DNA of 54,644 nt from Longimicrobiales bacterium (GCA_041690395.1 JAWLHJ010000002.1:721199-775842), one strand, 5' to 3'; shown: positions 19,767-54,644, counted from the stretch's first letter. Program-made: numbers and translations. The notes: generated from the sequence alone by a model not told the origin.

Positions 19767-19776
19767 GTGCGGGCCC

Positions 19777-22464
<2,688 letters not shown>

Positions 22465-39633: not shown

Positions 39634-41547
39634 ATGCGCCCTCCAGCGGTTCGCATCCCGCCCTCGCCTCCGGAGCCGTCCCGCTTGACCCACTCCGAGC
39701 TCCTCATCGGCATCGCCGCCATCTTCGTCCTCGGCATCGGCGCGCAGTGGATCGCCGCCAAGCTCAACACTCCGTCCATCCTGCCGCTCCTGATCCTCGG
39801 CTTCATCGCCGGCCCCGTCACCGGGCTCGTGCGGCCGGACGAGATGTTCGGGGATCTCCTCTTCGTGATCGTGCCCCTGGCCGTCGGCGTCGTGCTCTTC
39901 GAGGGAGGCATGACGCTGTCCATCTCCGAGATCCGGAGCCATCACGGCGTCGTGCGCCGCCTCATCACCACCGGCATGCTCGTCACGTGGGGCATCGCCG
40001 CCGGCGCGGCCATCGTCATCCTGAACCTCTCTTCGGGGATCGCGGTCCTGTTCGGCGCCGTGATCGTCGTGTCCGGCCCCACGGTCGTCGGCCCGCTGCT
40101 CCGCTCCGTCCGCCCGCGCCCGCGCATGCGCACGATCCTGAACTGGGAGGGGATCCTCATCGATCCCATCGGCGCGACCCTCGCCGTGATCGTGTTCGGC
40201 ATCCTGATCGCCGGCGGCGGCTCGCTCACCGGCGGGCTCGGCGGCGTCCTTTCGACCCTGGCGGCGGGCGCGATCGTCGGCCTGATCGGGGCCGGCGCGA
40301 TGGTCCTGCTTCTCAAGGGATACCTGATCCCCGATCGCATGCAGGCTTCGGTCACGCTGGCGGCCATCGTGACCGCGTTCGTCGTCTCCGATCTCATACG
40401 GCCCGAATCCGGGCTGCTCGCCGTCACCCTCATGGGGATCGCCCTCGCGAACCAGCCCTTCGTGCCCGTCGGTCGTATCGTGGCCTTCAAGGAGACCCTC
40501 CGGGACCTCCTCATCGCCGCGCTCTTCATCGTGCTCGCCGCCCGGCTCGAGATGGAGGACGTGCTGTCCGTCGGCTTCGCAGAGGTTCTCTTCCTTTCGG
40601 TGATGGTGCTTCTGGCACGGCCGCTCACCGTGTTCATCTCCACCCTCGGCTCCGATCTCAGCCAGCGCGAGCGACTGTTCCTGGCATGGGTCGCCCCACG
40701 CGGCATCGTCGCCGCCGCCGTGGCCTCCGTCTTCGCGATCCCGCTGGAGGCGCAGGAGATCGTCGACGCCGACCGGCTCGTGCCGCTCACCTTCTTCGTC
40801 ATCGTCGGAACCGTCGCGCTCTACTCGCTGACCGCCAAGGTCGTGGGACGCCTGCTCGGCGTCGTCGACGAGCGCCCCGGCGGGCTCACCATCGTGGGCG
40901 CCAACCCCGTCGCGCGTGAGCTCGCCAAGTCCCTGGCCGATGCCGGGGTCGAAGTCCAGCTCATCGCCACGAACCATTCGGAGCTCACCAAGGCCCGGAT
41001 CGAAGGTCTAGACGCCGTGCGGGCCAGCGTGCTGGACCAGGTCTCCGAGGAGACCAGCGGCATCCTGCTGATCGCCACGCCCAACGACGAGTTCAACACC
41101 CTCGCCGCCATCCGCGCCGTCGAGTCGCGGGACCGGGCCCACGTCTATCAGCTCGCGCCGTCGGGCGGGAGCGACACCGCGGCCGCCCGGCCGCGCGCCC
41201 GCCTCTTCGTGTCCCCCGAGCTCACCTTCATCATGGCCTCGGAAGCGATGCTCGCGGGGGGCACCTTCCGCGGCACCGCGCTCACCGAGCAGTTCACCTT
41301 CCATGATTACCGGAAGCGCTATGGGGACCGGGCGATCCCCACCTTCCTCGTGGAGCGGAAGCGCCTCGTCGGGGTCTTCAGCGCGGACTCGTCGCTCACG
41401 CCCTCGCCCGGACAGATCGTCGTGTCCTTGATCACGCCCGAGGTCCCCGCGCCCGCGACGGTCGACGAGGAGGAGGTCATCGAGGCCATGGAGCGGAGCG
41501 GGCCCACGGGCCCGGAGGGGACGGGGCCGACCGGCTCGGGGACGTAG
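39634..41547 (+). CDS. CPA1 cation/H+ antiporter with C-terminal RCK-like domain
   Basis: LFEGG, SGPTVV.PLL, WEGILIDP.GA, APRGIVAA; start may be TTG at 39685. Confidence 0.88.
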   Translation: MRPPAVRIPPSPPEPSRLTHSELLIGIAAIFVLGIGAQWIAAKLNTPSILPLLILGFIAGPVTGLVRPDEMFGDLLFVIVPLAVGVVLFEGGMTLSISEIRSHHGVVRRLITTGMLVTWGIAAGAAIVILNLSSGIAVLFGAVIVVSGPTVVGPLLRSVRPRPRMRTILNWEGILIDPIGATLAVIVFGILIAGGGSLTGGLGGVLSTLAAGAIVGLIGAGAMVLLLKGYLIPDRMQASVTLAAIVTAFVVSDLIRPESGLLAVTLMGIALANQPFVPVGRIVAFKETLRDLLIAALFIVLAARLEMEDVLSVGFAEVLFLSVMVLLARPLTVFISTLGSDLSQRERLFLAWVAPRGIVAAAVASVFAIPLEAQEIVDADRLVPLTFFVIVGTVALYSLTAKVVGRLLGVVDERPGGLTIVGANPVARELAKSLADAGVEVQLIATNHSELTKARIEGLDAVRASVLDQVSEETSGILLIATPNDEFNTLAAIRAVESRDRAHVYQLAPSGGSDTAAARPRARLFVSPELTFIMASEAMLAGGTFRGTALTEQFTFHDYRKRYGDRAIPTFLVERKRLVGVFSADSSLTPSPGQIVVSLITPEVPAPATVDEEEVIEAMERSGPTGPEGTGPTGSGT

Positions 41548-41820
41548 GCTTCGCGCCGGAGGCCGCAGCGCCCCGCGTGTCCGTCCTTCCGGCCCAACAG
41601 GTCCGTGAGCCGCGGAGCCCCGGCGGAGCCCCGAACGCATCGTCTTCCCGCGCCGTGGGGTCCGTAGGCCCCAGCCCCCGAGGCATCCCCTTCCCACGCC
41701 GCGACGTCCGCAGACCCAGCCCCCGAGACATCGCCTTCCCCAGCCACGACCCACAACGAGGTGCCCACGGCCGTCCCGTTCCGGCATTCCCTCGCCCCGC
41801 GTCTCCGTGCTCCTTGCACC

Positions 41821-43101
41821 ATGCGCAGAGAGCCCGCCGTGACTGTTCGCGTCCACCCCCAGGAGGACCGCATCCTCATCCGATTCGGATGGCGTCGCTT
41901 CGCCGCCGTGCTCGACGCCGTGAAGGCACTCGCCGGGCGCCGCTACCTCCCGGAGCGGGCGCTCTGGAGCGCCCCCGCCCCCGATGCCGCCATCCGATCT
42001 CTCCAGCAGGCGTTGGGGAGGGATGAAGTGTGGATCATCGACGACCGTCCGTTGCTCGGGCCCGAGCTGCCGGCGGGGTGGACCAAGCCGGACGATCGGA
42101 ACCGGCCGGAGGGTCGACATCGGCGCACCACGGCGCAGGCGACCCGACCGGAACGCCCCACGGAAGCGCACCCGGCACGCCCCACCCGCGCCGATGCCCG
42201 AGACCCGGCGCGTCTCGAGCCATCCGACGCCCCAGCCCCCTCGCGGCTCGACCCGACGGGCGACGAGCTCCTGGCGCGCGTCCACGCTGCACTCGACCTC
42301 AGGGGATACAGTCCGCGCACGCGGAAGGTCTATCTAGGCCACCTCCGCCGATTCTTCGAGTGGTGCGGGGGCGGCACCCCGAAGCTGCCGGAAGATCCCG
42401 CGCGGAGTGCGCAAGCGTACCTCCTCGAGCTCGTACGTGGGCCCGGTATCTCGAAGAGCTACCATAACCAGATCGTGAGCGCCCTCCGGTTCCTGTGCGA
42501 GACCGTGCTCGGGCAGCCCCGGCTCGCGCTCCGGATCCCGAGGCCCCGGAAGGAGCGGAAGCTCCCCGCGGTGCTAAGCCCCGGCGAAGTCGCCCGCATA
42601 CTCGGCAAGACCCGGAACCTCAAGCACCGAGCGCTGCTCATGCTCCTCTACAGCGCCGGCCTCAGGGTGGGCGAGGTGGTCCGGCTCACACCCGCCGATC
42701 TCGACATGGATCGCGGGCTCGTGCGTGTGCGCGGCGGCAAAGGCGGAAAGGATCGGTACACATTGCTGGCCCAACGAGCCATCGAAGCCGTGCGTCTCTA
42801 CCGGGACGCCTATCCCGCACGCCCGTGGCTGTTTCCCGGTGGTATGAAGGAGACCCACCTGACGACGCGATCTGTCCAACGCATCGTCCAGGAAGCTGCC
42901 GAAGCCGCCGGCATCGAGAAGCACGTCACGGCCCACACCCTCCGTCACAGCTTCGCCACCCATCTCCTGGAGGGCGGCACGAACCTCCGCGTCATCCAGG
43001 AGCTCCTCGGCCACCAGAGCGCGAGGACGACCCAGGTGTACACCCACGTGGCCCGGTCCACCCTGGAAACCGTGAGGAGCCCGCTGGACAACCTGGAGTG
43101 A
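41821..43101 (+). CDS. Tyrosine recombinase of an integron-like element (SAM-like plus catalytic domains, extra N-terminal domain, no IntI-specific insertion)
   Basis: YSPRTRKVY, LPAVLS, YSAGLRVGE, GKGGKDR, HTLRHSFATHLLE, LGH, TQVY, terminal RSPLD; start uncertain (41761/41821/41839). Confidence 0.92.
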   Translation: MRREPAVTVRVHPQEDRILIRFGWRRFAAVLDAVKALAGRRYLPERALWSAPAPDAAIRSLQQALGRDEVWIIDDRPLLGPELPAGWTKPDDRNRPEGRHRRTTAQATRPERPTEAHPARPTRADARDPARLEPSDAPAPSRLDPTGDELLARVHAALDLRGYSPRTRKVYLGHLRRFFEWCGGGTPKLPEDPARSAQAYLLELVRGPGISKSYHNQIVSALRFLCETVLGQPRLALRIPRPRKERKLPAVLSPGEVARILGKTRNLKHRALLMLLYSAGLRVGEVVRLTPADLDMDRGLVRVRGGKGGKDRYTLLAQRAIEAVRLYRDAYPARPWLFPGGMKETHLTTRSVQRIVQEAAEAAGIEKHVTAHTLRHSFATHLLEGGTNLRVIQELLGHQSARTTQVYTHVARSTLETVRSPLDNLE

Positions 43102-43189
43102 AGCGGACCGGATCTTCGGGCCAGATCGGGTCGATGGGCGGTGGGCCACAGGCGGGGCGACCGGAGGCCGGGCCCCCGACGCGATTACC

Positions 43190-43218
43190 TTGCGCCTTAT
43201 CGACAGCCGGTGAACAAT
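43190..43218 (+). promoter_or_regulatory. Candidate cassette promoter (Pc-like)
   Basis: TTGCGC-17bp-AACAAT about 110 bp upstream of the putative attI, pointing into the array. Confidence 0.3.
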
Positions 43219-43318
43219 GCCAGGGTCGGAGCCAAGCCGTCAGGCGCCTCTAATATCGGGACTCTCGACGTCGGAAATCCCCCCGAGAAAGAGCGTAAAG
43301 CGACACTTTGCTTCGGCA

Positions 43319-43332
43319 ATAACCAGTTATGG
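43319..43332 (+). other. Putative attI-type primary recombination site (crossover near G43326/TT)
   Basis: ATAAC-CA-GTTAT palindrome; gttatggaacattggc pairs with gccaacgtcccataac before the first attC; downstream sequence matches the start of the last cassette (54569). Confidence 0.75.
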
Positions 43333-43740
43333 AACATTGGCCGAGCGGTTCGGTTTCTTGCGTCGGCTCCCTATGACGGAGGGCTTGCACGGTCGCGGCG
43401 CGGGGCTCCCCTCTGCCCCCTTTGGGGGCTCTGTAGTTTCCCGTCCGCGCCTGAGCTGGAGCCGACGCTAGACCCGCAGCTTCATCGTCATCTTCCTTGC
43501 TCAGAGGACCCGGCTACCCGATCGCCAGTGGCTCCCTGCGTCGGCGGGGCGAGTGCCTCGAAGGAGGCGCGGCTCCCTTCGTCGCGATCCCGAGAGACCA
43601 GCGCTGTAACTGAGCTCAGGTTCTTGAAGTGAAGTTCTCTCGGAGCCGCGCTTTCTCCGGGGGTAGGCCCGCCGACGCCAGGCGGAGTGCTTGGTCTCAT
43701 CGGGCGGGCTCACGTGGACATCGTGGAAGCCAACGTCCCA

Positions 43741-43891
43741 TAACAAGTATGTTTCTGGGTCCGCTCACTTCGTTCGCTCCCCCTACATGGCCTTACGATC
43801 GAACGTGGCCCGGGAGCGGATCGCAGTGTATTCTCCGGCAGGTAAGCGTGGGCCGGCTGATGGGGGCCACGTCAGAAACATCTGAACGTTA
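43741..43891 (+). repeat. attC-like site 1 (core type B)
   Basis: TAAC-aagt-ATGTTTCTG...ACATGGCC...GGCCACGT-CAGAAACAT-ctgaac-GTTA. Confidence 0.9.
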
Positions 43892-43948
43892 TCGGTCATT
43901 GCAGGCCGGGCATGAGGGCAGGCGGGTCGCGAACGGGCCTCCACTGGA

Positions 43949-44335
43949 GTGAGCGTGCATATTCCGGGACTTGAGATTAGGGAGCCACTGGAGCATCGCC
44001 CCATTCGTGGAACAATCCATGGTGGTTCCGTGGGGATCCTGTTCGGCGTTCTGGCTGTCGTCGGTGGAGCAGATGGTGGCACTCTGTTCGGCGGATACAC
44101 CGCCGGCTGCGCGGCGGCAGGTCTCGTTATTGGGTCTGCCCTGCCATTGTTCCGGTCGAGGGTGCTGGCTGGAGTAGTCGTGGCCGTTGCTTGGTCAGTC
44201 GGCCACGGGATTGCGACTCAACTCTGGGGCCAAGAGATGGGATTCCCGCTTGTGGCCTCGGTCGGGATGGCGATGGGATTCGCCTACGCCGTCTTGCTGT
44301 GGGACTACAAGTCAACAGGAGTAGCGCCGCATTAG
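43949..44335 (+). CDS. Cassette 1: hypothetical 4-TM membrane protein
   Basis: Single hydrophobic ORF inside the cassette; duplicated in cassette 2. Confidence 0.6.
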   Translation: MSVHIPGLEIREPLEHRPIRGTIHGGSVGILFGVLAVVGGADGGTLFGGYTAGCAAAGLVIGSALPLFRSRVLAGVVVAVAWSVGHGIATQLWGQEMGFPLVASVGMAMGFAYAVLLWDYKSTGVAPH

Positions 44336-44513
44336 TGGTGCGCTAAGGTTTCGACCTTAGGGGCACTGCCAGCGTGAGTCAGCCGACATGCCGTCTTGGT
44401 AGTGCCTCGTGGCCTGTGACTAGGCGACGCGTCCTTCAACTCTAGCTCGCGAGGGGACGAAGGTCGGTTTCACCGCCCGGACTGGTGTTGTCCGGCAAGC
44501 CTGCAACGACCGA

Positions 44514-44669
44514 TAACAAGAATGTTTCCGGCTCCGCTCACTGCGTTCGCTCCGACCTACATGGCCTCGAGCGTTTCAGGTCCGTAGACTGGGTGCAGTG
44601 ACGTAGGTTCCGCTTCTGTTCGCATGTAAGCAGTGCGGCGGTGGCCACGTCGGAAACATCTGAACGTTA
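44514..44669 (+). repeat. attC-like site 2 (type A)
   Basis: TAAC..ATGTTTCCG...CGGAAACATCTGAACGTTA. Confidence 0.9.
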
Positions 44670-44727
44670 TCGGTCATTGCAGGCCGGGCATGAGGGTCAG
44701 GCGGGTCGCGAACGGGCCTCCACTGGA

Positions 44728-45114
44728 GTGAGCGTGCATATTCCGGGACTTGAGATTAGGGAGCCACTGGAGCATCGCCCCATTCGTGGAACAATCCATG
44801 GTGGTTCCGTGGGGATCCTGTTCGGCGTTCTGGCTGTCGTCGGTGGAGCAGATGGTGGCACTCTGTTCGGCGGATACACCGCCGGCTGCGCGGCGGCAGG
44901 TCTCGTTATTGGGTCTGCCCTGCCATTGTTCCGGTCGAGGGTGCTGGCTGGAGTAGTCGTGGCCGTTGCTTGGTCAGTCGGCCACGGGATCGCGACTCAA
45001 CTCTGGGGCCAAGAGATGGGATTCCCGCTTGTGGCCTCGGTCGGGATGGCGATGGGATTCGCCTACGCTGTCTTGCTGTGGGACTACAAGTCAACAGGAG
45101 TAACGCCGCATTAG
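44728..45114 (+). CDS. Cassette 2: near-identical copy of the cassette 1 membrane protein
   Basis: Same protein except GVAPH versus GVTPH. Confidence 0.6.
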   Translation: MSVHIPGLEIREPLEHRPIRGTIHGGSVGILFGVLAVVGGADGGTLFGGYTAGCAAAGLVIGSALPLFRSRVLAGVVVAVAWSVGHGIATQLWGQEMGFPLVASVGMAMGFAYAVLLWDYKSTGVTPH

Positions 45115-45298
45115 TGGTGCGCTGAGGTTTCGAGCTTAGGGTCCGAAGAGCACTGCCAGCGTGAGTCAGCCGACATCCCGTCTTGGTAGTGCCTCGTGGT
45201 CTGACTAGGCGACGCGTCCTTCAACTCTAGCTCGCGAGGGGACGAAGGTCGGTTTCACCACCCGGACTGGTGTTGCCCGGCAAGCCTGCAACGACCGA

Positions 45299-45453
45299 TA
45301 ACAGGAATGTTTCCGGTTACGCGGGCTGCGCCCGCTCCACCTACATGGCCTCGAGCGCTTCGGGTCCGTATGCTGGGTGCAGTGACGTGGGTTCCGCTTC
45401 TGTTCGCATGTAAGCTGTGCGGCGGTGGCCACGTCGGAAACATCTGAACGTTA
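45299..45453 (+). repeat. attC-like site 3 (type A)
   Basis: Same consensus as the other repeats. Confidence 0.9.
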
Positions 45454-45598
45454 TATGACATCGCCTGAGGGGTTCTGAGGGGTCGAGGCGACCCTTTGAG
45501 GGGAGTTGAATAGGATTTAACGGAGCCCTTGCGTTAAAAATTTTGGCGCACGATTTTAATGTCCTCACGCCCCATTAAAGCCTCCTTCCCCCACTCGA

Positions 45599-46744
45599 AT
45601 GGACACTTCGGCTTTTGGCCCGAAGTCCCCTGGCAAGCTGGTTCCCGTATCGGGTGTTCGGGACGTTACGCACGCCTTTTGCCCGGAGCCTCTGCCTCCG
45701 AACTGGACGTTTCCGGCGGCCTTATGGCCGCTCCTCACGGACGCCCGAGTCGCTTTGGCGGACCTGAACGGGGTTGGTCGATATCTGCCTAATCCCGACC
45801 TGTTACTGCGCCCGCTCCAGAATCGAGAGGCACAAAAATCCTCGAGTCTTGAGGGGACGTACACGGAGCCCGAAGAGCAGATGCTGTTTGAGCTCGAGCC
45901 CGAGTTGCCCCGAGACGTGGCAGATCCCCGAAATGCTCGCAGGGAGGTCTCAAACTACGCTCGGGCTCTGCGGATCCGGCGCGAGAAGGATGAACTACCC
46001 CTCTCCTGGAGGCTGACCAAGACGCTTCACGAGGTCTTGATGGATGGGGTCCGTGGGTCGGATCGCGCCCCGGGGGAATTTCGGCGGCTCCAGAATCAAA
46101 TCGGTCGGCCGCCCAGATTTGTCCCCCCGCCAGCACATCTCGTCCCAGACCTACTCGACAACTTCGAGAAGTACTTGCATGCTGACGACGGGTTGGACCC
46201 TCTCGTACGTGCTTTTGTAGCGCACTATCAATTCGAAACCATCCATCCGTTCATGGACGGAAATGGCCGCGTCGGAAGACTGCTCCTCGCGATATCGATT
46301 GAGGAGTGGTGCGGACTATCGGCACCTTGGCTCTACATGAGCGACTTCTTCGATAGGAACAAAGACGACTACATCGACCTCATGTTTGCCGTGAGTTCCC
46401 GCGGAGACTGGGAGAGTTGGATCCGTTTCTGCCTCGAGGGAGTCGTGATTCAAGCCAAGGACACTGCCGCACGTTGCGGAGCACTGATTCAATTGAATAG
46501 GGACTTCCACGAGCGGGTCAACCAAATGGGTGCCAGCATCAGGCTCTCGGCTCTGGTCGACGACCTCTTCTTGAATCCCATGGTACGCGTGACGGACGCG
46601 CGAGATCGCCTCAGTGTAACCTACCCCACGGCCCGCAGTGATCTCCAAAAGCTTGAGCGAGCCGGAATCGTCCGGCTCCTGAAAGGAGCGCCACAGCTGA
46701 CTTACTTCTCCGGCCCGATCCTGAACACTATTTACGGCGATTGA
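45599..46744 (+). CDS. Cassette 3: Fic family protein with N-terminal domain and C-terminal wHTH
   Basis: HPFMDGNGRVGR Fic motif; EAQKSSSLEGT inhibitory-like motif; VTYPTARSDLQKL HTH. Confidence 0.92.
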   Translation: MDTSAFGPKSPGKLVPVSGVRDVTHAFCPEPLPPNWTFPAALWPLLTDARVALADLNGVGRYLPNPDLLLRPLQNREAQKSSSLEGTYTEPEEQMLFELEPELPRDVADPRNARREVSNYARALRIRREKDELPLSWRLTKTLHEVLMDGVRGSDRAPGEFRRLQNQIGRPPRFVPPPAHLVPDLLDNFEKYLHADDGLDPLVRAFVAHYQFETIHPFMDGNGRVGRLLLAISIEEWCGLSAPWLYMSDFFDRNKDDYIDLMFAVSSRGDWESWIRFCLEGVVIQAKDTAARCGALIQLNRDFHERVNQMGASIRLSALVDDLFLNPMVRVTDARDRLSVTYPTARSDLQKLERAGIVRLLKGAPQLTYFSGPILNTIYGD

Positions 46745-46781
46745 TGGGTTGCTCCAGACGGTTCGGTGGGGCGACGTCATA

Positions 46782-46930
46782 TAACAAGAATGTTTCCGGG
46801 TCCGCTCGCTGCGCTCGCTCCCCCTACATGGCCTTCAGGCTGTCGTGGCGCTGGAGCAGATCGCAGCGTATTCTCGGGCAGATGGTTCAGACGGTCCGGT
46901 GGTGGCCACGTCGGAAACATCTGAACGTTA
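46782..46930 (+). repeat. attC-like site 4 (type B)
   Basis: Same consensus as the other repeats. Confidence 0.9.
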
Positions 46931-46978
46931 TGTGAAACTGGCCTCGGATTGAGGCCGATCGTGTGGACCCTCCCGAGC

Positions 46979-47007
46979 TTGCTACTGTACCACGTTTGTG
47001 GTACTAT
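46979..47007 (+). promoter_or_regulatory. TA cassette promoter with overlapping palindromic operator
   Basis: TTGCTA-17bp-TACTAT; GTACCAC-gttt-GTGGTAC at 46987-47004. Confidence 0.75.
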
Positions 47008-47013
47008 GTGCCC

Positions 47014-47319
47014 ATGGGTTTCTCCTCCGCGAAGCGAGCGCTCCTGGCCGCCCTCGAGGTTGGCAACTTCCAGCACGAGGCCCGGGAGGTTCTCAGCGAG
47101 AAGAACCTGCTGGCCGTCGGGGACATCTCCGTGGACGAGGTCATCGGCATCGTGAAGCGGGCTCGCGGCCCGGACTATTCGGCGTCGCCTCATCACTGGG
47201 ATCCGGGCACCGAGGTACACGTGTTCCGGCCGACGGTCGAAGGGACCCGATGGTATGTGAAGGCCTACTTCCTTGAAGAACCCGAAGGAACTGCGGTCTT
47301 CATCAGCATTCACCGGTAG
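47014..47319 (+). CDS. Cassette 4: putative MqsR/RelE-superfamily toxin
   Basis: 101 aa, C-terminal WYVKAYF...VFISIH as in MqsR-like RNases; toxin-first gene order. Confidence 0.65.
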   Translation: MGFSSAKRALLAALEVGNFQHEAREVLSEKNLLAVGDISVDEVIGIVKRARGPDYSASPHHWDPGTEVHVFRPTVEGTRWYVKAYFLEEPEGTAVFISIHR

Positions 47320-47325
47320 GACGAC

Positions 47326-47916
47326 ATGAAGATCATCGAAGAAGGTACGAGGGGTGTTGCTCTAGCTCCGGAGCGCGGGAAGGTCCCCGTGGTATTCGAA
47401 TACCGTGACCTGACCCTGGACTCTGGAGTCGTGGTCAAGGACGTCCTCGTTGGGGTGGCTGAGGACACGGGAGAGGTCCTCACCGTTCCGGCCCAGTCCA
47501 CGCCTCGGATCAAGCTGGCCAGGCTGGCGGCGAAAGATGAGACGTTCTCGGTCCGCATCCCATTCGAGCTGAACGATATCCTGTGGGGTGTGTCTCACGA
47601 GCTCGGAGCGAATCCGACGAAGTTCAACTCTGCGTTGATCCGGTTTTATCTACATGAAGCGACCGACAGCCGGACCATGGCCCGGAGGTTGAAGAGGCTC
47701 TCGACTTCCGACCTAGCCGCGAAGTCCTCGAAGACCAAGCTCACCCTCCGGTCCGACTCGGATCTTCTTGAACGGGTCAAGCAGGTCGAAGAGAGAGAGG
47801 GGGTCTCTCGGAGTGAGCTGGTGAGAGGGGCCGTGATCGCAATGAAGGAAGATGTTTTCGACCGGCCGAGGAAGGGTCGCTTGGGTCAGCTAAGAGCCAT
47901 TGCTGAGGCGGTCTGA
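47326..47916 (+). CDS. Cassette 4: putative antitoxin (MqsA-like N-terminus, RHH-like C-terminus)
   Basis: V.DVLVGVAEDTGE resembles the MqsA C..CGE motif; two RHH-like segments. Confidence 0.6.
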   Translation: MKIIEEGTRGVALAPERGKVPVVFEYRDLTLDSGVVVKDVLVGVAEDTGEVLTVPAQSTPRIKLARLAAKDETFSVRIPFELNDILWGVSHELGANPTKFNSALIRFYLHEATDSRTMARRLKRLSTSDLAAKSSKTKLTLRSDSDLLERVKQVEEREGVSRSELVRGAVIAMKEDVFDRPRKGRLGQLRAIAEAV

Positions 47917-47941
47917 TTTGGCCGACCAGGCCAGCATCACA

Positions 47942-48092
47942 TAACAAGTATGTTTCCGGCTTCGCTCACTTCGTTCGCTCCGACCTACATGGCCTCGAGC
48001 GAATGTGGTCCGGGAACCAAGTGCAGCGTATTCTCGAAGTGAAGGTCCGACCACAGTTCGTGGTGGGCCACGTCGGAAACATCTGAACGTTA
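47942..48092 (+). repeat. attC-like site 5 (type B)
   Basis: Same consensus as the other repeats. Confidence 0.9.
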
Positions 48093-48341
48093 GCCGACAC
48101 CCTCAGACAGGTGCGGTAGGCGGGGTGGCCGCAACGAGCTTCTTGGGTTTCGGTCTCTTGGGCGGCTCCTGCGGGGTCGCCGGGTGGCTCAGCGAACCGT
48201 CTCTCTGAAATTCTCCCCTTCCCCGCCCAGGAGCTCAGGCCCCAGCAACCCACAACGCAACGCGACAAGCGCCAAGAGTTCAAAGTCTCGGGTCTAGGGT
48301 CGCGCGCTGAAACGTTCCTTGGTCTGAGGGCATCGGCTAAC
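48089..48341. other. Cassette 5: ORF-less cassette body (253 bp)
   Basis: Homologous to 51811-52065 and 52213-52466. Confidence 0.75.
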
Positions 48342-48493
48342 AAGAATGTTTCCGGCTCCGCGGGCTTCGCCCGCTCCGACCTACATGGCCTCGAGCGTCT
48401 CAGGTCCGTAGACTGGGTGCAGTGACGTGGGTTCCGCTTCTGTTCGTCTGTAAGCCGCGCGGCGGTGGCCACGTCGGAAACATCTGAACGTTA
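48338..48493 (+). repeat. attC-like site 6 (type A)
   Basis: Same consensus as the other repeats. Confidence 0.9.
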
Positions 48494-48581
48494 TGTGTAA
48501 TTGCCCTGGTGCCGGGGGATTGGGTTCAGATGGATGTCGCGAGGCTGATGCGTTCGCGTTGACCCAGGCGGTGATGAGCGA

Positions 48582-49784
48582 ATGAAGGGACTCGGAGTTC
48601 TTCTAATCCTGGGCATGTTCGCATGTGATCGTGCGGACCCACCTGAGGCCAGTGGGATTCCGACTACGACGTCGTCTCCACCGTACCCGGAGTGGTCACT
48701 GAGCTCCGAGCCTGACGTCCGCATCGGGGCGGTGGACGGGCCGCCGGAGTACCAGCTTACCCGCATCGGACTTGCCGGACGTCTAACCGACGGAAGGATC
48801 GTCGTGTTCGATAACGGCTCGTCTGAGCTGCGTTGGTTTGGTCCCGACGGAGGATTCCAGGCGCGAGCGGGAGGTCCCGGCGAGGGTCCAGGCGAGTTCC
48901 GGAGCGTGGTCAGCGCAGCCGTGACTCCACAGGACTCGGTCGTTCTGTATGACTTCAGGAATCAGCGGCTGACCTGGCACGGACCGGACGGAGTTCTCGG
49001 TCGCACCCTGCGGGCCGAGCTACATCCTTCCATGAGGCTCGTTTCCCGCCAAGACGAGCGCATCGTCATTGCGGAGGAACGGCCGGCGTTGAATCTAGGC
49101 GGTGCTGAGTACAACTACGCCCGGGACTCGGTCCTGATCATGTTAACCGGCAGCACGACACAGCCTCTCGACACCTTGGTGCACCGTGCCGGTCGAGAGG
49201 CGGCGACCTGGGTCGAGTACGCGGACGGAAGACCAATCGGCACTCGACAGCTCGGTCTGCCCTTCAGTCATCCGACACTCGTCGGAGCCGCAGCAGAAGG
49301 GATCGTGCTCCTGGAGAGCGGACGGTCTGAACTGGCTTTCCTGGATGATGAGGGCCAGGTGGTTCGGATGGCACACCGTACGGACGTGGATTCCCCTGCT
49401 CTTTCAGCTGTTCTGCGCCAAGAGTACGTGAGGAACGCCGTGCAGTCGGCGAGAGAGAGAGACGTTCCGGAACAGCCCGCTCGAGCTGCGGCCGAAGGTC
49501 TCCTCGCGGTGATCCCGGAAGGACATAGAGTGTCGCCCTTCGACCGCATGCTGACAGACCCTGTCTCGGGAAGGATCTGGGTCCGTGACTATCTGTTCGA
49601 TTGGAATGCCGGGGGAGCTCAGTATTGGACGGTGCATGATTCGCTCGGCCACGTCTTAGGGCGAGTCGCAACTCCGCCGGGACTTGAAGTCATGCAGGTG
49701 GGCTCCGATTTCGTGGTCGGAGTCGAGCGAGACCAGTTGGGGGTGGAGTATGTTGTCGCGTACTCGCTGGAGGGCTCCGACTAG
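48582..49784 (+). CDS. Cassette 6: lipoprotein, probable 6-bladed beta-propeller
   Basis: Lipobox MFAC; GGPGEGPGEF NHL-like motif; GRIWVRDY. Confidence 0.75.
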   Translation: MKGLGVLLILGMFACDRADPPEASGIPTTTSSPPYPEWSLSSEPDVRIGAVDGPPEYQLTRIGLAGRLTDGRIVVFDNGSSELRWFGPDGGFQARAGGPGEGPGEFRSVVSAAVTPQDSVVLYDFRNQRLTWHGPDGVLGRTLRAELHPSMRLVSRQDERIVIAEERPALNLGGAEYNYARDSVLIMLTGSTTQPLDTLVHRAGREAATWVEYADGRPIGTRQLGLPFSHPTLVGAAAEGIVLLESGRSELAFLDDEGQVVRMAHRTDVDSPALSAVLRQEYVRNAVQSARERDVPEQPARAAAEGLLAVIPEGHRVSPFDRMLTDPVSGRIWVRDYLFDWNAGGAQYWTVHDSLGHVLGRVATPPGLEVMQVGSDFVVGVERDQLGVEYVVAYSLEGSD

Positions 49785-49877
49785 ATGCGGATCGCGCGCG
49801 AAGAAGATCTTTGGGTTCTCCTCTCGGCGGCACCGCCGGTAACCGCATCGGTTTAGGTTGAGCCGGGCAACTACACA

Positions 49878-50027
49878 TAACAAGAATGTTTCCGGGTCCG
49901 CTCGCTGCGCTCGCTCCCCCTACATGGCCTCGAGCTGTCGGACATCGTAAGCTGTCAGTTGAACTCGGTGCGTTTCAGCAGAGAAAAGCGCATATGCTGG
50001 GGCCACGTCGGAAACATCTGAACGTTA
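49878..50027 (+). repeat. attC-like site 7 (type C)
   Basis: Same consensus as the other repeats. Confidence 0.9.
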
Positions 50028-50058
50028 TGTGAAACAGCTCCCCGCCTGAGGGAACGCG

Positions 50059-50628
50059 GTGGCATCGGAAGCAGGAGAATTGAACAGGGACACCCTGCCC
50101 GAGGTTATCGAGACGGAACGACTCGTCCTTCGACCGTTCCAACTCGGTGACGTGGAAGATGTCCTGGCCTATGCTCAGGATCCTGAATGGGCCCGCTTCT
50201 TGAGGGACCTCCCTCAGCCCTATGGACGGGCCGAGGCTGAGCAGGCTGTCGCCAAGCAGCTCCTGATGGACCGGGTTCGAGAGCCGAACTGGGCCTTGGT
50301 CTTTGAAGGCCAAGTCATCGGAGGCGTGATCCTATTGTTGGATTTCTCGAACAGGTCCGCCGAGGTCGGCTACTCCGTGGGCCGCAAGCAATGGAATAAG
50401 GGGTTGGCTACGGAAGCCGTCCGCGCCGTCATCGATGCGGCATTCTCCACACATGAAGATCTCAACCGGGTGTGGGCGAGGACGGATCCGGACAACGTGG
50501 CTTCCCAGCGGGTGCTCGAGAAGGTGGGAATGACGAAGGAAGGCGTTCTGCGTCTGAGTCGGGTGTACAACGGAGAGGCGTTCGACGAAGCGTACTTCTC
50601 TTTGCTTCGGACAGAACGGGGAGCGTGA
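50059..50628 (+). CDS. Cassette 7: RimJ/RimL-family GNAT acetyltransferase
   Basis: IETERLVLRPF, AEVGY, WNKGLATEA, NVASQRVLEKVGM..EG. Confidence 0.92.
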   Translation: MASEAGELNRDTLPEVIETERLVLRPFQLGDVEDVLAYAQDPEWARFLRDLPQPYGRAEAEQAVAKQLLMDRVREPNWALVFEGQVIGGVILLLDFSNRSAEVGYSVGRKQWNKGLATEAVRAVIDAAFSTHEDLNRVWARTDPDNVASQRVLEKVGMTKEGVLRLSRVYNGEAFDEAYFSLLRTERGA

Positions 50629-50659
50629 TCGACGGGGTACGGCGGGGAGCTGCATCACA

Positions 50660-50814
50660 TAACAAGAATGTTTCCGGTTACGCGGGCTGCGCCCGCTCCA
50701 CCTACATGGCCTCGAGCGCTTCGGGTCCGTATGCTGGGTGCAGTGACGTGGGTTCCGCTTCTGTTCGATTGTAAGCAGCGCGGTGGTGGCCACGTCGGAA
50801 ACATCTGAACGTTA
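50660..50814 (+). repeat. attC-like site 8 (type A)
   Basis: Same consensus as the other repeats. Confidence 0.9.
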
Positions 50815-50826
50815 TCGGTCATTGAA

Positions 50827-51060
50827 TCACGACCATGGTGCAGAGACTTCTCCGTCTAGCTCGTCGAGCTTCCGCTGCATGAAGGCTCGGGCATCTTGCA
50901 CTGCTTGGTTGTAAACGTGGGGCCCGACCTCATCGAGGCAGAAGTCAAGTAACTGGGACGCGCGGAACGAGCTCAAGGTCTCGTCGAACTCCTCCAGATA
51001 GAACCCCTGGATACGGAGAATCAGCTGCTCGCGTCGCTCGTCTGAGAGCCTCAGAGTCAT
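50827..51060 (-). CDS. Cassette 8: DUF2164 family protein
   Basis: IQGFY.EE...LLDF...EVGP.VYNQAVQDA. Confidence 0.8.
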   Translation of the reverse strand: MTLRLSDERREQLILRIQGFYLEEFDETLSSFRASQLLDFCLDEVGPHVYNQAVQDARAFMQRKLDELDGEVSAPWS

Positions 51061-51118
51061 CGGGTTTGTCCGTCCATTTCTTGCGTTAGAGAAAGAGTAC
51101 GATGGCCCACAGTGAAAG

Positions 51119-51625
51119 ATGAAGCTAACCGAGCCCAGGATCGAACGATCTCACCACATGAGGTTGGTTGGACTCAGTGCGCGGATGTCCTTTGGCGAGC
51201 CAGCCATGTCAGAGCTGTGGCGGACTTTTCGTCCGAGAGCCCGGCAGATCGGGAATCGGAGGAGCCAGGACTTCGTCTCCATGCGCGTGTTCGTTCCTCC
51301 GCTGAAGACCATGCCCCGGCTGGATTCCCCGTTCGTGCAGTGGGCGGCCGTTGAGGTCCACGACTTCGATCACGTTCCCGAAGGCCTCGACACGTGCGTG
51401 GTGCCGGAGGGTCTCTATGCAGTCTTTGTCCATCACGGTACAGCGGAGAGCTTCGGCCGAACGGCCCAGTTCATTTTTCGAGATTGGTTGCCGCAGTCTC
51501 CGTATCAGCTAGCACCCCGGGAGTTCTTCGAGATTCTTGGTCCAGACTATCGTCCGGACGATTCCGATGCATCCGAAGAGGTCTGGATACCTGTCGAACC
51601 TCGGCTACCAAGGCAGAGTGACTGA
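51119..51625 (+). CDS. Cassette 8: GyrI-like small-molecule binding protein
   Basis: LVGLS, LW..F, WAAVEV, VPEG, GLYAVFVH.G, IF.DWLPQS.Y, EEVWIPV. Confidence 0.88.
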   Translation: MKLTEPRIERSHHMRLVGLSARMSFGEPAMSELWRTFRPRARQIGNRRSQDFVSMRVFVPPLKTMPRLDSPFVQWAAVEVHDFDHVPEGLDTCVVPEGLYAVFVHHGTAESFGRTAQFIFRDWLPQSPYQLAPREFFEILGPDYRPDDSDASEEVWIPVEPRLPRQSD

Positions 51626-51664
51626 AGATGGGGCCGATCGTGTAGGTGATGATTCAACGACCGA

Positions 51665-51814
51665 TAACAAGAATGTTTCCGGCTCCGCTCACTTCGTTCG
51701 CTCCGACCTACATGGCCTCGAACGTGCAGGCATCGTATGCTGGCAGGTGAACTCGAAGGTTTCAGGTAAGATGAGCGCATATGCGGTGGCCACGTCGGAA
51801 ACATCTGAACGTTA
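51665..51814 (+). repeat. attC-like site 9 (type C)
   Basis: Same consensus as the other repeats. Confidence 0.9.
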
Positions 51815-52065
51815 GGCGACATCACTGAGCAGGTGCGGTAGGCGAGGTGCCCGCTATCAGCTTCTAAGGTTTCGGTATCTCGGGCGGCTCCTTCAGGGTA
51901 ACCGGCCGGCTCAGCGAGCGGGATCTCCACTGAGGTCCCCCTTCCCCGCCCGAGAACTGAGGTTCCATCGAACCTCGTCGCATCGCAACCAGCGCCAAGA
52001 GTTCGAAGTCTTGGGTCTAGCTTTCACCGGCTGGAACGTTCAATGGCTCAGTGACGCCGCCTAAC
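51811..52065. other. Cassette 9: ORF-less cassette body (255 bp)
   Basis: Homolog of cassette 5. Confidence 0.75.
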
Positions 52066-52216
52066 AAGAATGTTTCCGGTTGCGCGGGCTTCGCCCGCTC
52101 CACCTACATGGCCTCGAGCGCTTCGGGTCCGTAGACTGGGTGGAGTGACGTGGGTTCCGCTTCTGTTCGCATGTGAGCCGTGCGGCGGTGGCCACGTCGG
52201 AAACATCTGAACGTTA
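52062..52216 (+). repeat. attC-like site 10 (type A)
   Basis: Same consensus as the other repeats. Confidence 0.9.
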
Positions 52217-52466
52217 GCCGACATCGCGGAGCAGACGCGGGAAGCGGAGTGCCCGCGACGAACAACTGAGGTCGGTATTTCGGGCGGCTCCCTGCGGGGT
52301 CGCTGAGCGGCTCAGCGAACGGACTGAGATCAGGGGTCACCCCACTCCTCCACCCCGTTTCGGACCTGACATGGCCCACAGATCGCGGGGGAGCGCCAAG
52401 AGTTTGGAGGTCCAGGGTCTAGTTTCACCCCCAGCTACGTTCGTTGGCTCCGCGACGCCGGCTAAC
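52213..52466. other. Cassette 10: ORF-less cassette body (254 bp)
   Basis: More diverged homolog of cassettes 5 and 9. Confidence 0.7.
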
Positions 52467-52617
52467 AAGAATGTTTCCGGTTACGCGGGCTTCGCCCGCT
52501 CCACCTACATGGCCTCGAGCGCTTCGGGTCCGTATGCTGGGTGCAGTGACGTGGGTTCCGCTTCTGTTCGCATGTAAGCCACGCGGCGGTGGCCACGTCG
52601 GAAACATCTGAACGTTA
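52463..52617 (+). repeat. attC-like site 11 (type A)
   Basis: Same consensus as the other repeats. Confidence 0.9.
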
Positions 52618-52669
52618 TACGCCATTGGCCTAAGGGTTCGGTTTCACTTCCGGGTGGGGAGGCGAACAG

Positions 52670-53191
52670 ATGGGACGAACGGGAGCTTCCGCATCGCCTA
52701 CAGCTTCCCTATGCCTTTTCCTCATCGGACTCGCAGCCTGTGCCCCGGATGCTCAGCAGCACCTGGTAGAGCAGTTAGCTGAACCCGTCTCGGCCAACCC
52801 TGGATGTTACGAGGTATCTGGCACCACTGGCTTCCCCGAAGGAATTTTCGATCTGTATCTCCCCGAGGCCTTTCGGTTGCGGCCGCCCCGGCAGTCGGTC
52901 GCCGACGGGCACATCTTCAGTTATGCCGTCGAGTTCTTGAGCGTACCCGAGCGCTACCGCCCTTTCAATCGCATCGGAGAGGCGAGGAGCATACGCCCTG
53001 ACTCGCTGCTGGTCGTCTGGGACGGGGTAGTCCAGCGATTCCAGATCCGGCAAGATGGAGCGCTCACGGGGATCGTCACTCTCAGGAGACCGGAGATCGA
53101 GGTTCTCGGTGAGGTTGAGGCCCACCTGGTTGATTGTCCTACCGAGGAAGCTCCGACTGCCCCTCAAGTACCGTTCCCTGGAAGTGGCTGA
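52670..53191 (+). CDS. Cassette 11: hypothetical lipoprotein
   Basis: GGAGG RBS; lipobox LAAC. Confidence 0.6.
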   Translation: MGRTGASASPTASLCLFLIGLAACAPDAQQHLVEQLAEPVSANPGCYEVSGTTGFPEGIFDLYLPEAFRLRPPRQSVADGHIFSYAVEFLSVPERYRPFNRIGEARSIRPDSLLVVWDGVVQRFQIRQDGALTGIVTLRRPEIEVLGEVEAHLVDCPTEEAPTAPQVPFPGSG

Positions 53192-53296
53192 GGACGCAGC
53201 GAGCGACAAGTAGCTTTCTCGGGACTCGGAGGCTGAGAGCGCTTCGGCTCAAGGGTGAGGGCCAAGGACTGTAGGGAAGCGACGGCCAACGGCGTA

Positions 53297-53452
53297 TAAC
53301 AAGAATGTTTCCGGCTCCGCTCACTGCGTTCGCTCCGTCCTACATGGCCTCAAGCGTCTCAGGTCCGTATGCTGGGTGCAGTGACTTTGGCTTCGCTTCT
53401 GTTCGCATGTGAGCAGTTCGGCGGTGGCCACGTCGGAAACATCTGAACGTTA
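53297..53452 (+). repeat. attC-like site 12 (type A)
   Basis: Same consensus as the other repeats. Confidence 0.9.
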
Positions 53453-53585
53453 TACGACAAAGCGCAGGTTGTAGGGAGCAGGTCGGTAGGCCCGGACCAA
53501 GGACCTGGGTCGGTTCCGTCGGGCACGGACGTACAGATACGAGAGGCCGCCTGATCCGCTCGATCTCACGAATGGGAACCCCAGC

Positions 53586-54308
53586 TTGGAGAACGCTCAC
53601 GCCGGCCAGGTAGGAAGATCCGAGAGCGCCCGAGCCGGCGTGGCCGCCGCGGCCATCTTCCTGTTCGCAGTAGGGGCCTCCGCTGTGCTGACCTGGTCCA
53701 ACGGAAGCGTGTATAGCTTCCTATTCGGCGGGCTCAACCCCCTCCTGGTGACTGCAGCCGCCGCCCTTTTTGGAGTCGCTGCGCTTCAACGCCTTGCCCT
53801 TCTCGGGTGGTTCCAGGCTGGGGGCGCCAGTACTCGTAGCGTCGCGCTCGCCTCGGTGCTCGGTGCAGCCCTGACCGTTCCGGTCATCGTCATCGATCTC
53901 TTCGGTGGCTTTCCGGCCGAGCTGAATGTTCGGTTTCCGGAGTCCTTACTCTTCTATCCGTCCATCGCCGTGGTTGCGGAGTCGGCCTTTCATCTGGTGC
54001 CCCTGGCCCTGATGGCGATGGTGTGGAGGTGGACTTCCCTGGAGTTCTCGCGCGCTCGGCTCTTTGCGATCGGGATTGCTGCGGTAATCGAGCCGGTTCT
54101 CCAGGTGGCCTGGGGGAGTGAGATGTTACCGAGTTGGGCGAATGCCTACGTCGGCATCCATCTCTTGGTCTTCAATGTGGTCGCGCTCGAGATCTTCCGA
54201 CGCTCTGGGTTCGTTGCGCTCTATGGGTTCAGAGTCGGGTACTATCTCGTTTGGCACATCACCTGGGGCTACTTCCGACTTCCGCTGCTCTTCGAGAGCG
54301 GTACTTAG
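53586..54308 (+). CDS. Cassette 12: polytopic membrane protein, weakly CPBP/Abi-like
   Basis: About 7 TM segments; AESAFH and YYLVWH motifs; start uncertain. Confidence 0.65.
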   Translation: MENAHAGQVGRSESARAGVAAAAIFLFAVGASAVLTWSNGSVYSFLFGGLNPLLVTAAAALFGVAALQRLALLGWFQAGGASTRSVALASVLGAALTVPVIVIDLFGGFPAELNVRFPESLLFYPSIAVVAESAFHLVPLALMAMVWRWTSLEFSRARLFAIGIAAVIEPVLQVAWGSEMLPSWANAYVGIHLLVFNVVALEIFRRSGFVALYGFRVGYYLVWHITWGYFRLPLLFESGT

Positions 54309-54422
54309 GGAGGTGGCGGGCAGATTCCGGATGCGCGTGGATCTTGGACTGGAACCGGCTGGCACTTGTTTTGGGGTCAACCGCCGGTTGGGCCGGGCGT
54401 CGCGGGCCTGCGCTTCGTCGTA

Positions 54423-54572
54423 TAACAAGAATGTTTCCGGGTCCGCTCCCTGCGGTCGCTCCCCCTACATGGCCCGGAACGGGTGTGGCTCGAGAACGAA
54501 GTGCAGCGTATTCTCGATCAGGTCCGCGTGGACCGTCCGGTGGTGGGCCACGTCGGAAACATCTGAACGTTA
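54423..54572 (+). repeat. attC-like site 13 (type B)
   Basis: Same consensus; followed by a truncated cassette 13. Confidence 0.9.
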
Positions 54573-54644
54573 TAGGACATTGGCCCGAACGGTTCGGTTT
54601 GTTGCGTCGGCTCCCTCTTTCGGAGGACTTGCACGGTCGCGGCG

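Follow-up and report, generated by a model that had tools for sequence, protein, structure and literature searches.

In classical integrons, the I2 insertion of the integrase IntI docks the extrahelical bases of the folded cassette site and blocks the exchange of the second strand (Escudero et al., PMC7790495). Classical attC sites carry two or three such bases, at positions 16 and 23/24 and 6 bp apart (Nivina et al., PMC5027507; positions also in PMC7439510), and most attC sites of mobile integrons have a GAA loop on the bottom strand (PMC5027507). The literature holds I2 and hairpin recombination to be inseparable and notes the absence of intermediates (PMC7790495). The integration of the CTX phage proceeds through recombination of a folded single strand by XerCD, devoid of I2, and the phage escapes the second exchange through the activation of XerC only (PMC7790495). 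Members of the 'Integron-like' subgroup of tyrosine recombinases, found in Bacteroidia, Clostridia, Bacilli, Spirochaetia, Ignavibacteria, and Gemmatimonadetes, have a catalytic-domain insertion described as 'not fully conserved' (Smyshlyaev et al. 2021, PMC8138268). The term 'attC' is absent from the main text of that study and 'HARP' from its text supplements, and these parts describe no sites or arrays of insertion-less members. Our literature search, which covered few subscription papers, returned no description of arrays with I2-less enzymes or of tyrosine recombinases bearing a HARP domain. Here, we analyse a stretch of 54,644 nt (hereafter, the window) from a Longimicrobiales bacterium (GCA_041690395.1, JAWLHJ010000002.1:721199-775842), in which a recombinase gene of this kind precedes an array of attC-like repeats.

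The window lies at the end of contig C2 in a 98% complete genome of 4.33 Mb. Its 13 repeats, of 149-156 nt from TAAC to GTTA, run from 43741-43891 through 54423-54572 between open reading frames (ORFs) and gene-less spacers (Table 1). The array fails two of the defining features of the classical integron, I2 and the extrahelical bases, yet it appears to be built to work like one. We give somewhat better than even chances to the reading that the repeats serve an integron-like array as its sites of cassette recombination and are recombined as folded bottom-strand hairpins by the adjacent I2-less enzyme. Taken together, the array and its enzyme likely represent a second way of shuffling gene cassettes.

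The recombinase gene ends 225 nt upstream of the first cassette, and the nearest named relatives of its product are from Gemmatimonadota, including Longimicrobiales. The catalytic residues R-K-H-R-H-Y are present (R282, K307, H371, the R375/H376 motif, H398, and Y407), at positions invariant or nearly so across 114 homologues, which suggests that the enzyme is catalytically intact. Among the scored homologue candidates, 4,799 of 7,998 pass the threshold of 1e-30. The IntI profile TIGR02249 matches the protein in two separate stretches, with 213 bits against a cut-off of 265. Between the stretches aligned to VchIntIA (2a3v), the protein has 22 residues instead of 64, and the deficit of ~41 residues holds against both VchIntIA and canonical IntI; an earlier reading of the window, made from the sequence alone, was thus right that the enzyme lacks I2. 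The spacing from the catalytic K to the H is 58-62 in 29 of 30 I2-less rows of the alignment, versus 100-101 in the 8 measurable rows of the 20 canonical ones. The XerC and XerD equivalogs of NCBIfam score below their cut-offs (186 vs 335 bits and 184 vs 330 bits, respectively). The structural model has a mean predicted local distance difference test (pLDDT) of 81.5, with a linker below 50, and its best structure matches are XerA (4a8e) and 2a3v. Identity to a canonical IntI of the same phylum is 34%. In a quick, unrooted tree, a branch with support 81 sets 30 I2-less proteins apart and another with support 99 does so for IntI, and the array recombinase groups apart from the other recombinases of this genome; one row (L143_x) duplicates an IntI, and we claim no order of events because no root was tested.

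The array might also be served by another enzyme, either the host XerC/D or a canonical IntI that was since lost, with its neighbour being incidental. The genome encodes three other tyrosine recombinases, and TIGR02249 is matched above the cut-off in 81 of 201 sampled genomes of the phylum (a tally including one genome, G208, that has no match over the cut-off). However, there is no TIGR02249 match over the cut-off in this 98% complete genome, and the same holds for all 24 sampled genomes of its family (0/24). At 30 other loci, an enzyme of the same family lies directly upstream of such arrays, and the sites differ in type from the canonical ones of the same phylum. We thus regard this explanation as very improbable. 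The I2-less enzyme occurs in 16 of 36 genomes of the family, with canonical IntI in 0/24, and one genome (G042) has both; the two distributions are possibly complementary.

We extracted 40 complete sites and 41 cassettes genome-wide; two of the cassettes contain an internal missed site and were retained in the counts. All sites share one orientation, and all 40 have the TAAC and GTTA boxes with an unpaired spacer of 4/6 nt. The RYYYAAC/GTTRRRY boxes and the unpaired central spacer of attC are thus present, with positions past the core varying beyond RRRY. The sequence-only reading had described perfectly paired L-box arms with a compensatory pair in repeat 1, a loop-out of about 27 nt in the left arm, an inner stem with a G:T on the bottom strand, and, within the loop-out, a covarying C(GNA)G triloop hairpin in which tandem G.A pairs interchange with Watson-Crick pairs. 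This description was borne out in all 13 repeats of the window. The L stem pairs over 9 bp in each, repeat 1 being alone in having T:A at the compensatory position. The loop-out measures 27-28 nt and lies wholly in the left arm, and the inner stem, of 8 bp and with the bottom-strand G:T, abuts the L stem on the right arm (gap 0). In the side hairpin, the loop is always GAA or GCA and its closing pair C:G; Watson-Crick pairs occupy the two middle positions in 5 repeats and tandem G.A pairs in 8, and one of the hairpin's pairs covaries (G:C in 7, A:T in 5, and C:G in 1).

The same architecture extends to the rest of the genome. All 40 complete sites have nine gap-free L pairs followed by the one-sided loop-out of 27-28 nt, and none has in its L stem the two or three extrahelical bases of classical attC. 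The C(GNA)G hairpin is on the bottom strand in 40/40 sites, always at the same offset (loop centre 26 nt after AAC), and on the top strand in 0/40; comparable 6-bp hairpins have a background of ~2e-5 per genome position, repeats counted in. In this genome, the inner arm repeats the motif of the outer arm, including the G:T, and the branch splits it between pairs 8 and 9. The L and inner stems are nearly invariant within the genome, and their support comes from other genomes. Nearest-neighbour folding backs the L stem. The minimum free energy of the whole strand is lower for the bottom strand in 9 of the 13 repeats (top strand lower in 3, one tie), and the modelled fold is 3.2-6.3 kcal/mol lower on the bottom strand in all 13.

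To compare these sites with canonical ones of the same phylum, we used 20 stretches downstream of canonical intI and 7 metagenome loci, which gave 95 sites with extrahelical bases. A further 18 stretches upstream of canonical intI gave none, since canonical arrays of Gemmatimonadota lie downstream of intI, and two class 1 plasmid regions had no usable cassettes. These canonical arrays (L247-L266) lie downstream of intI on the same strand, the same layout as here; one of them (L247) neighbours a canonical IntI, yet differs from the others in its 4/7 spacer and in a bulge register that is ambiguous. Counting from the G of GTT in the right arm (R), the pair preceding the distal extrahelical base is at R-16, R-15, or R-14 in 58, 28, and 9 of the 95 canonical sites, and it is G:C in 93. 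The branch in our sites shares this register, and the proximal extrahelical base has no counterpart. It was thus correct that the L stem lacks an extrahelical base and that a branch stands in register with the distal one. In contrast, the claim that the GNA hairpin is the signal replacing the extrahelical base found no support in this form. Hairpins with GNA loops and tandem G.A pairs cap 22 of the 95 canonical sites, always at the apex and with the extrahelical bases kept, a bottom-strand GAA loop is a published attC feature, and the hairpin is found in only 6 of the 132 I2-less sites from outside Gemmatimonadota, which argues against a general replacement signal. As judged from these sequences, the GNA hairpin alone is ordinary, and the conserved element is the position of the branch.

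We then considered 204 sites at 31 loci, i.e. this genome and the 30 other loci of the same enzyme family, among which the layout of recombinase, attI-like site, and array is shared. One further locus (L112, in genome G015) gave false sites and was excluded from the counts of site geometry, hairpins, attI register, covariation, and HARP domains. On contig C1 of G015, seven near-identical copies of a recombinase of 44% identity have no such array alongside and are probably a transposable element. I2-less arrays occur in Gemmatimonadota, Bacillota, Ignavibacteriota, Bacteroidota, and Spirochaetota. The last pair of the L stem is a G:C at R-14 to R-16 in 185 of the 204 sites. We tested the inner stem by matching the 7 right-arm bases that follow the L stem to a more distant part of the left arm: they pair 7/7 in 139 of these 185 sites, with 41 distinct stems, versus a mean of 6.9 and a maximum of 14 in an arm-swap control. 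The loop-out is missing in only one of the 139. Across the five phyla, the branch point is constant within 1 bp and always on the same arm, with the other arm gap-free. This covariation across genomes, together with the strand-specific G:T pairs and GNA loops, supports the predicted folding of the bottom strand into a three-way junction, as first proposed from the window's sequence.

The filling of the branch differs between lineages. The inserts are mostly 23-63 nt long (maximum 91) and diverse in content. In other Gemmatimonadota, 26 of 32 sites have the GNA triloop hairpin, at a steady offset of +24 to +26, whereas the branches of Paenibacillaceae are filled with one or two hairpins with G-starting tetraloops and those of Ignavibacteria are mostly without a compact hairpin. 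The family-wide trait is a one-sided branch at a fixed position, with the GNA hairpin as the filling of this lineage. The wide variation of the inserts also fits another explanation, namely that the hairpin and the loop-out simply belong to a branched variable terminal structure aiding the folding of the bottom strand, the branch being dispensable and the choice of strand being set by the uneven spacer together with the G:T pairs. For attC, branched terminal structures have been published, as have GAA loops and G:T pairs on the bottom strand, and the extrahelical bases are dispensable for the rate at some sites (PMC5027507). Such a structure accounts poorly for a branch fixed within 1 bp, on one arm, in five phyla, and for the narrow range of hairpin offsets in Gemmatimonadota, and we consider it improbable.

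The ends of the cassettes also bear on the mode of recombination. The start of a cassette pairs with its own end at 80-100% of the cassettes at each position from +5 to +17 except +11 (41 cassettes), versus 27-64% pairing at the variable positions with the end of the next or of any other cassette. Position +11 is an A opposite a C on the top strand, i.e. a G:T on the bottom strand, in all 41. The same G:T is found in 103 of 112 cassettes of relatives from five phyla and in only 4 of 65 canonical ones, whose own-end pairing reaches ~+10 to +12. These counts include the spacers with at least 4/6 pairs at +5 to +10 for relatives (112 of 147, the latter still including 11 L112 spacers) and at least 2/3 pairs at +5 to +7 for canonical arrays (65 of 68); +11 is outside both filters. 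Own-end pairing of ~17 bp with a fixed +11 G:T is thus a simple marker dividing the two systems within one phylum. Related cassettes occupy different positions in the array, with homology spanning from GTTA to TAAC, and some are common to this genome and another one (G004). One pair of cassettes is identical including the downstream site, while their upstream sites are 71% alike. This is indirect evidence that the cassettes are mobile units bounded at GTT.

The candidate attI is non-palindromic, and the first cassette after it pairs with its own end. Equivalent sites are found in 34 loci, ~80-310 nt past the recombinase gene, and the register is comparable in 25 of them. Their left half matches the right arm of attC, but 3 nt nearer to GTT in 18 of the 25 loci and 2 nt nearer in 5, which gives a spacer of 6 bp in attI versus 9 nt on the right arm of attC. 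The crossover must lie within GTTA; its exact point, G^TT, is taken by analogy from classical integrons. We found no match to the sigma-70 consensus of a Pc promoter in 41500-43800, where 0.1 is expected by chance.

Sites of Xer recombinases have 11-bp arms and a 6-bp spacer. The arms of our sites look alike, the attI-like site suits a double-stranded spacer of 6 bp, and by score the protein is equally near to archaeal XerA (4a8e) and to VchIntIA. One could thus imagine that the enzyme acts on double-stranded Xer-like sites at the right ends of the repeats, the palindromes being by-products or having a role in RNA. The difference in spacing between attI and attC argues against the use of attC as a duplex of the same geometry, the arms being 3 nt further apart in attC at 18 of 25 loci. 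The G:T pairs on one strand in own-end pairing and the covarying inner stems would be useless in duplex DNA. Regarding RNA, the hairpin on the transcribed strand would contain tandem T.C mismatches, and the only Rfam match, at chance level, is outside the repeats. We find this duplex use quite improbable, if somewhat less so than service by another enzyme.

The recombinase starts with a compact region that precedes a disordered linker. A Pfam scan of the N-terminal 100 aa alone returned nothing, and PF07443 (HARP) does not match this protein alone; it does match 19 of 37 aligned members (E up to 1, best 1.8e-6). The family profile of the domain matches the SMARCAL1 chain 4o66 (E 6.5e-7), a fold search points to UvsW/XPB (Z 5.4, a middling value within the common-fold range), and an atlas comparison (0.80) gives a lead only. 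The HARP-like domain precedes 80 of 98 I2-less recombinases, 37 of which built the profile themselves, and none of 25 canonical IntI at their loci. HARP domains bind forked or branched DNA. The side hairpin could therefore be a direct recognition element, with the HARP-like domain, tethered by its flexible linker, binding the branch and assuming the role of I2. In line with this, 134 of 166 sites at HARP-bearing loci have a hairpin directly after the junction, versus 2 of 19 at HARP-less ones (15% in shuffles). Yet, five HARP-less loci keep arrays with loop-outs and the +11 wobble, and they are mostly from one Ignavibacteria/Bacteroidota group, which amounts to one or two independent contrasts. 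The association is also weakened by exceptions on both sides: among HARP-less loci, L104 has junction-proximal hairpins and L012 an R-15 site, whereas no compact hairpin was scored at the HARP-bearing loci L009, L011, and L064. Finally, the same type of hairpin caps canonical sites that have no HARP domain. Direct recognition is in our view unlikely, even if less so than the terminal structure described above.

Several points weigh against recombination of the folded bottom strand by the I2-less enzyme. Deletion of I2 kills IntI1 (PMC7790495). The G:T of the inner arm is found in 77 of the 139 family sites and is thus not universal. With DNA parameters, ViennaRNA gives the inner stem probabilities of 0.00-0.33 in the 13 repeats, and nearest-neighbour folding leaves the 8 hairpins of G.A type unformed. 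GNA loops and sheared G.A pairs are stable in DNA, and the latter result reflects parameters that do not include this extra stability. The contrast between gap-free stems (199/204) and bulged ones (0/95) is partly built in, because the detector used for relatives demanded a gap-free stem and the canonical one a bulge; a search by sequence motif was used solely for the 40 sites of this genome. Of the 31 loci, 17 are from Paenibacillaceae, and such kin are non-independent, so that site counts overstate independence. Some related copies of cassettes have different downstream sites (e.g. A04/B10, 74%). Lastly, the metagenome contigs (from four metagenomes retained in read mapping, best share 0.28) hold single cassettes and no excision circle was seen in them; joints among repeats in these contigs are no proof of excision.

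If the sites are indeed recombined as folded bottom strands, the fold would present an uneven spacer of 7/9 nt flanked by two 11-bp arms of approximate symmetry, each arm carrying, in this genome, a G:T at the same place. The enzyme would bind the folded bottom strand, with exchange at the G^TT of the outer arm. The branch would interrupt the inner (L) arm where the distal extrahelical base would sit, mark the strand in use, and bar the L-bound subunit from a second exchange, thereby accomplishing what classical integrons achieve with I2 and extrahelical bases. Replication would afterwards resolve the junction. The GNA/tandem-G.A hairpin may confer on the looped-out bases a compact, stable form specific to the bottom strand, as at the classical apex; it would be a strand-specific filler moved from the apex to the branch, which other lineages fill otherwise. 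In the excised circle, the outer stem would grow from 4 to ~17 bp, which may favour reinsertion at the double-stranded attI-like site with its 6-bp spacer.

The G+C content of the window, ~70%, drops to 58-64% from 43 kb onward. The end of contig C1 carries a further 33 left arms and 28 right arms, all in the same orientation, and is most likely the remainder of the C2 array. At its distal end (C1 ~983900-989200), left arms lack right-arm partners, which points to age-related decay. Eleven more partial or decayed repeat matches are found elsewhere in the genome. Small clusters and single decayed sites resembling orphan cassette arrays lie far from the recombinase (C5 381124-386900, C6 27139-28680, C7 108782, C1 93217 and 912249, C2 383571). 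The gene-less cassettes fall in two families. The one of ~420 nt has kin at 54569-54644, on C1, and in G004, and the contig breaks within a copy. The one of ~255 nt has at least 10 genomic copies, including at the end of C1, that are 69-100% alike with one identical pair; these are possibly promoter or small-RNA cassettes. The toxin-antitoxin-like cassette, whose first gene is presumably MqsR-like, has a 92% copy on C1 and high depth in several metagenomes. Outside the array, low-complexity repeats of 9-15 nt on the minus strand of the window (19770-19925) encode an acidic protein tract.

Table 1. Features of the recombinase locus and cassette array, in positions of the window.
Feature	Position	Strand	Remarks
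Tyrosine recombinase, 426 aa, IntI-related, no I2 insertion	41821..43101	+	PF00589 and PF13495; longer frame from GTG 41761
HARP-like N-terminal domain and disordered linker	41821..42045	+	First 75 residues, compact
attI-like primary site (candidate)	43310..43337	+	First cassette begins inside at 43326; putative crossover between G43326 and T43327
Cassette body, no convincing gene	43326..43744	+	Gene-less family of ~420 nt
attC-like site 1	43741..43891	-	Predicted substrate: bottom strand
Site 1, L stem left arm	43749-43757
Site 1, loop-out	43758-43784
Site 1, side hairpin	43763-43777
Site 1, inner stem left arm	43785-43792
Two tandem cassettes, small membrane-protein-like ORF	43949..45114	+	97% identical end to end; no Pfam match
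Small membrane-protein-like ORF copies	43949-44335; second copy ends 45114	+
attC-like site 2	44514..44669	-	Side hairpin 44536-44550
attC-like site 3	45299..45453	-	Side hairpin 45321-45335
Cassette gene, Fic family	45599..46744	+	PF13784, PF02661
attC-like site 4	46782..46930	-	Side hairpin 46804-46818
Two-gene cassette, toxin-antitoxin-like	46963..47916	+	Weak CopG antitoxin match, below cut-off
attC-like site 5	47942..48092	-	Side hairpin 47964-47978
Gene-less 253-nt cassette body	48089..48341	+	Multi-copy family; also 51811-52065, 52213-52466
attC-like site 6	48338..48493	-	Side hairpin 48360-48374
Cassette gene, weak beta-propeller match	48582..49784	+	PF17170, E 1.4e-4, below cut-off
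attC-like site 7	49878..50027	-	Side hairpin 49900-49914
Cassette gene, GNAT acetyltransferase	50059..50628	+	PF13302
attC-like site 8	50660..50814	-	Side hairpin 50682-50696
Cassette, DUF2164 (minus strand) and GyrI-like/Cass2 gene (plus strand)	50827..51625	.	PF09932, PF06445, PF14526
attC-like site 9	51665..51814	-	Side hairpin 51687-51701
attC-like site 10	52062..52216	-	Side hairpin 52084-52098
attC-like site 11	52463..52617	-	Side hairpin 52485-52499
Two cassettes, ORFs of 173 aa (52670-53191) and 240 aa (53586-54308)	52670..54308	+	No family match
attC-like site 12	53297..53452	-	Side hairpin 53319-53333
attC-like site 13	54423..54572	-	Side hairpin 54445-54459; contig end at 54644

Among described systems, the locus shares most with sedentary chromosomal integrons (IntI with I2, attI, and attC; VchIntIA, PDB 2a3v): a recombinase gene, a primary site, a long array in one orientation, palindromic TAAC...GTTA sites, own-end complementarity, a bottom-strand bias, and GNA/GAA mini-hairpins. 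It differs from them by the lack of I2 (~41 residues fewer), the extra HARP-like domain, the branch of 27-28 nt at the distal extrahelical position of an L stem that has no extrahelical base, and the longer own-end pairing. Its sites are also longer, at 148-156 nt versus the 57-141 nt published for attC. XerC/D and archaeal XerA acting on folded single strands (CTX phage, integrative mobile elements exploiting Xer [IMEXs]) likewise have no I2 and can perform a single exchange (PMC7790495), and XerA 4a8e has a similar sequence score to the array recombinase. Here, unlike in these systems, there is one dedicated enzyme, a cassette array of at least 40 sites, variable arms, and a branched site.

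These results raise the tentative possibility, which we hold less probable than the working of this array itself, of a second widespread class of integrons, with a Xer-like I2-less enzyme, a branch in place of the extrahelical bases, and a junction-binding HARP domain substituting for I2. Such arrays would likely escape searches that rely on I2 or on extrahelical bases. Here, a full array whose sites are defined and whose enzyme is I2-less displays a precise structural swap, which makes the question directly assayable. If it is true, such a class would be a living alternative solution to, or an intermediate in, the passage from double- to single-strand recombination.

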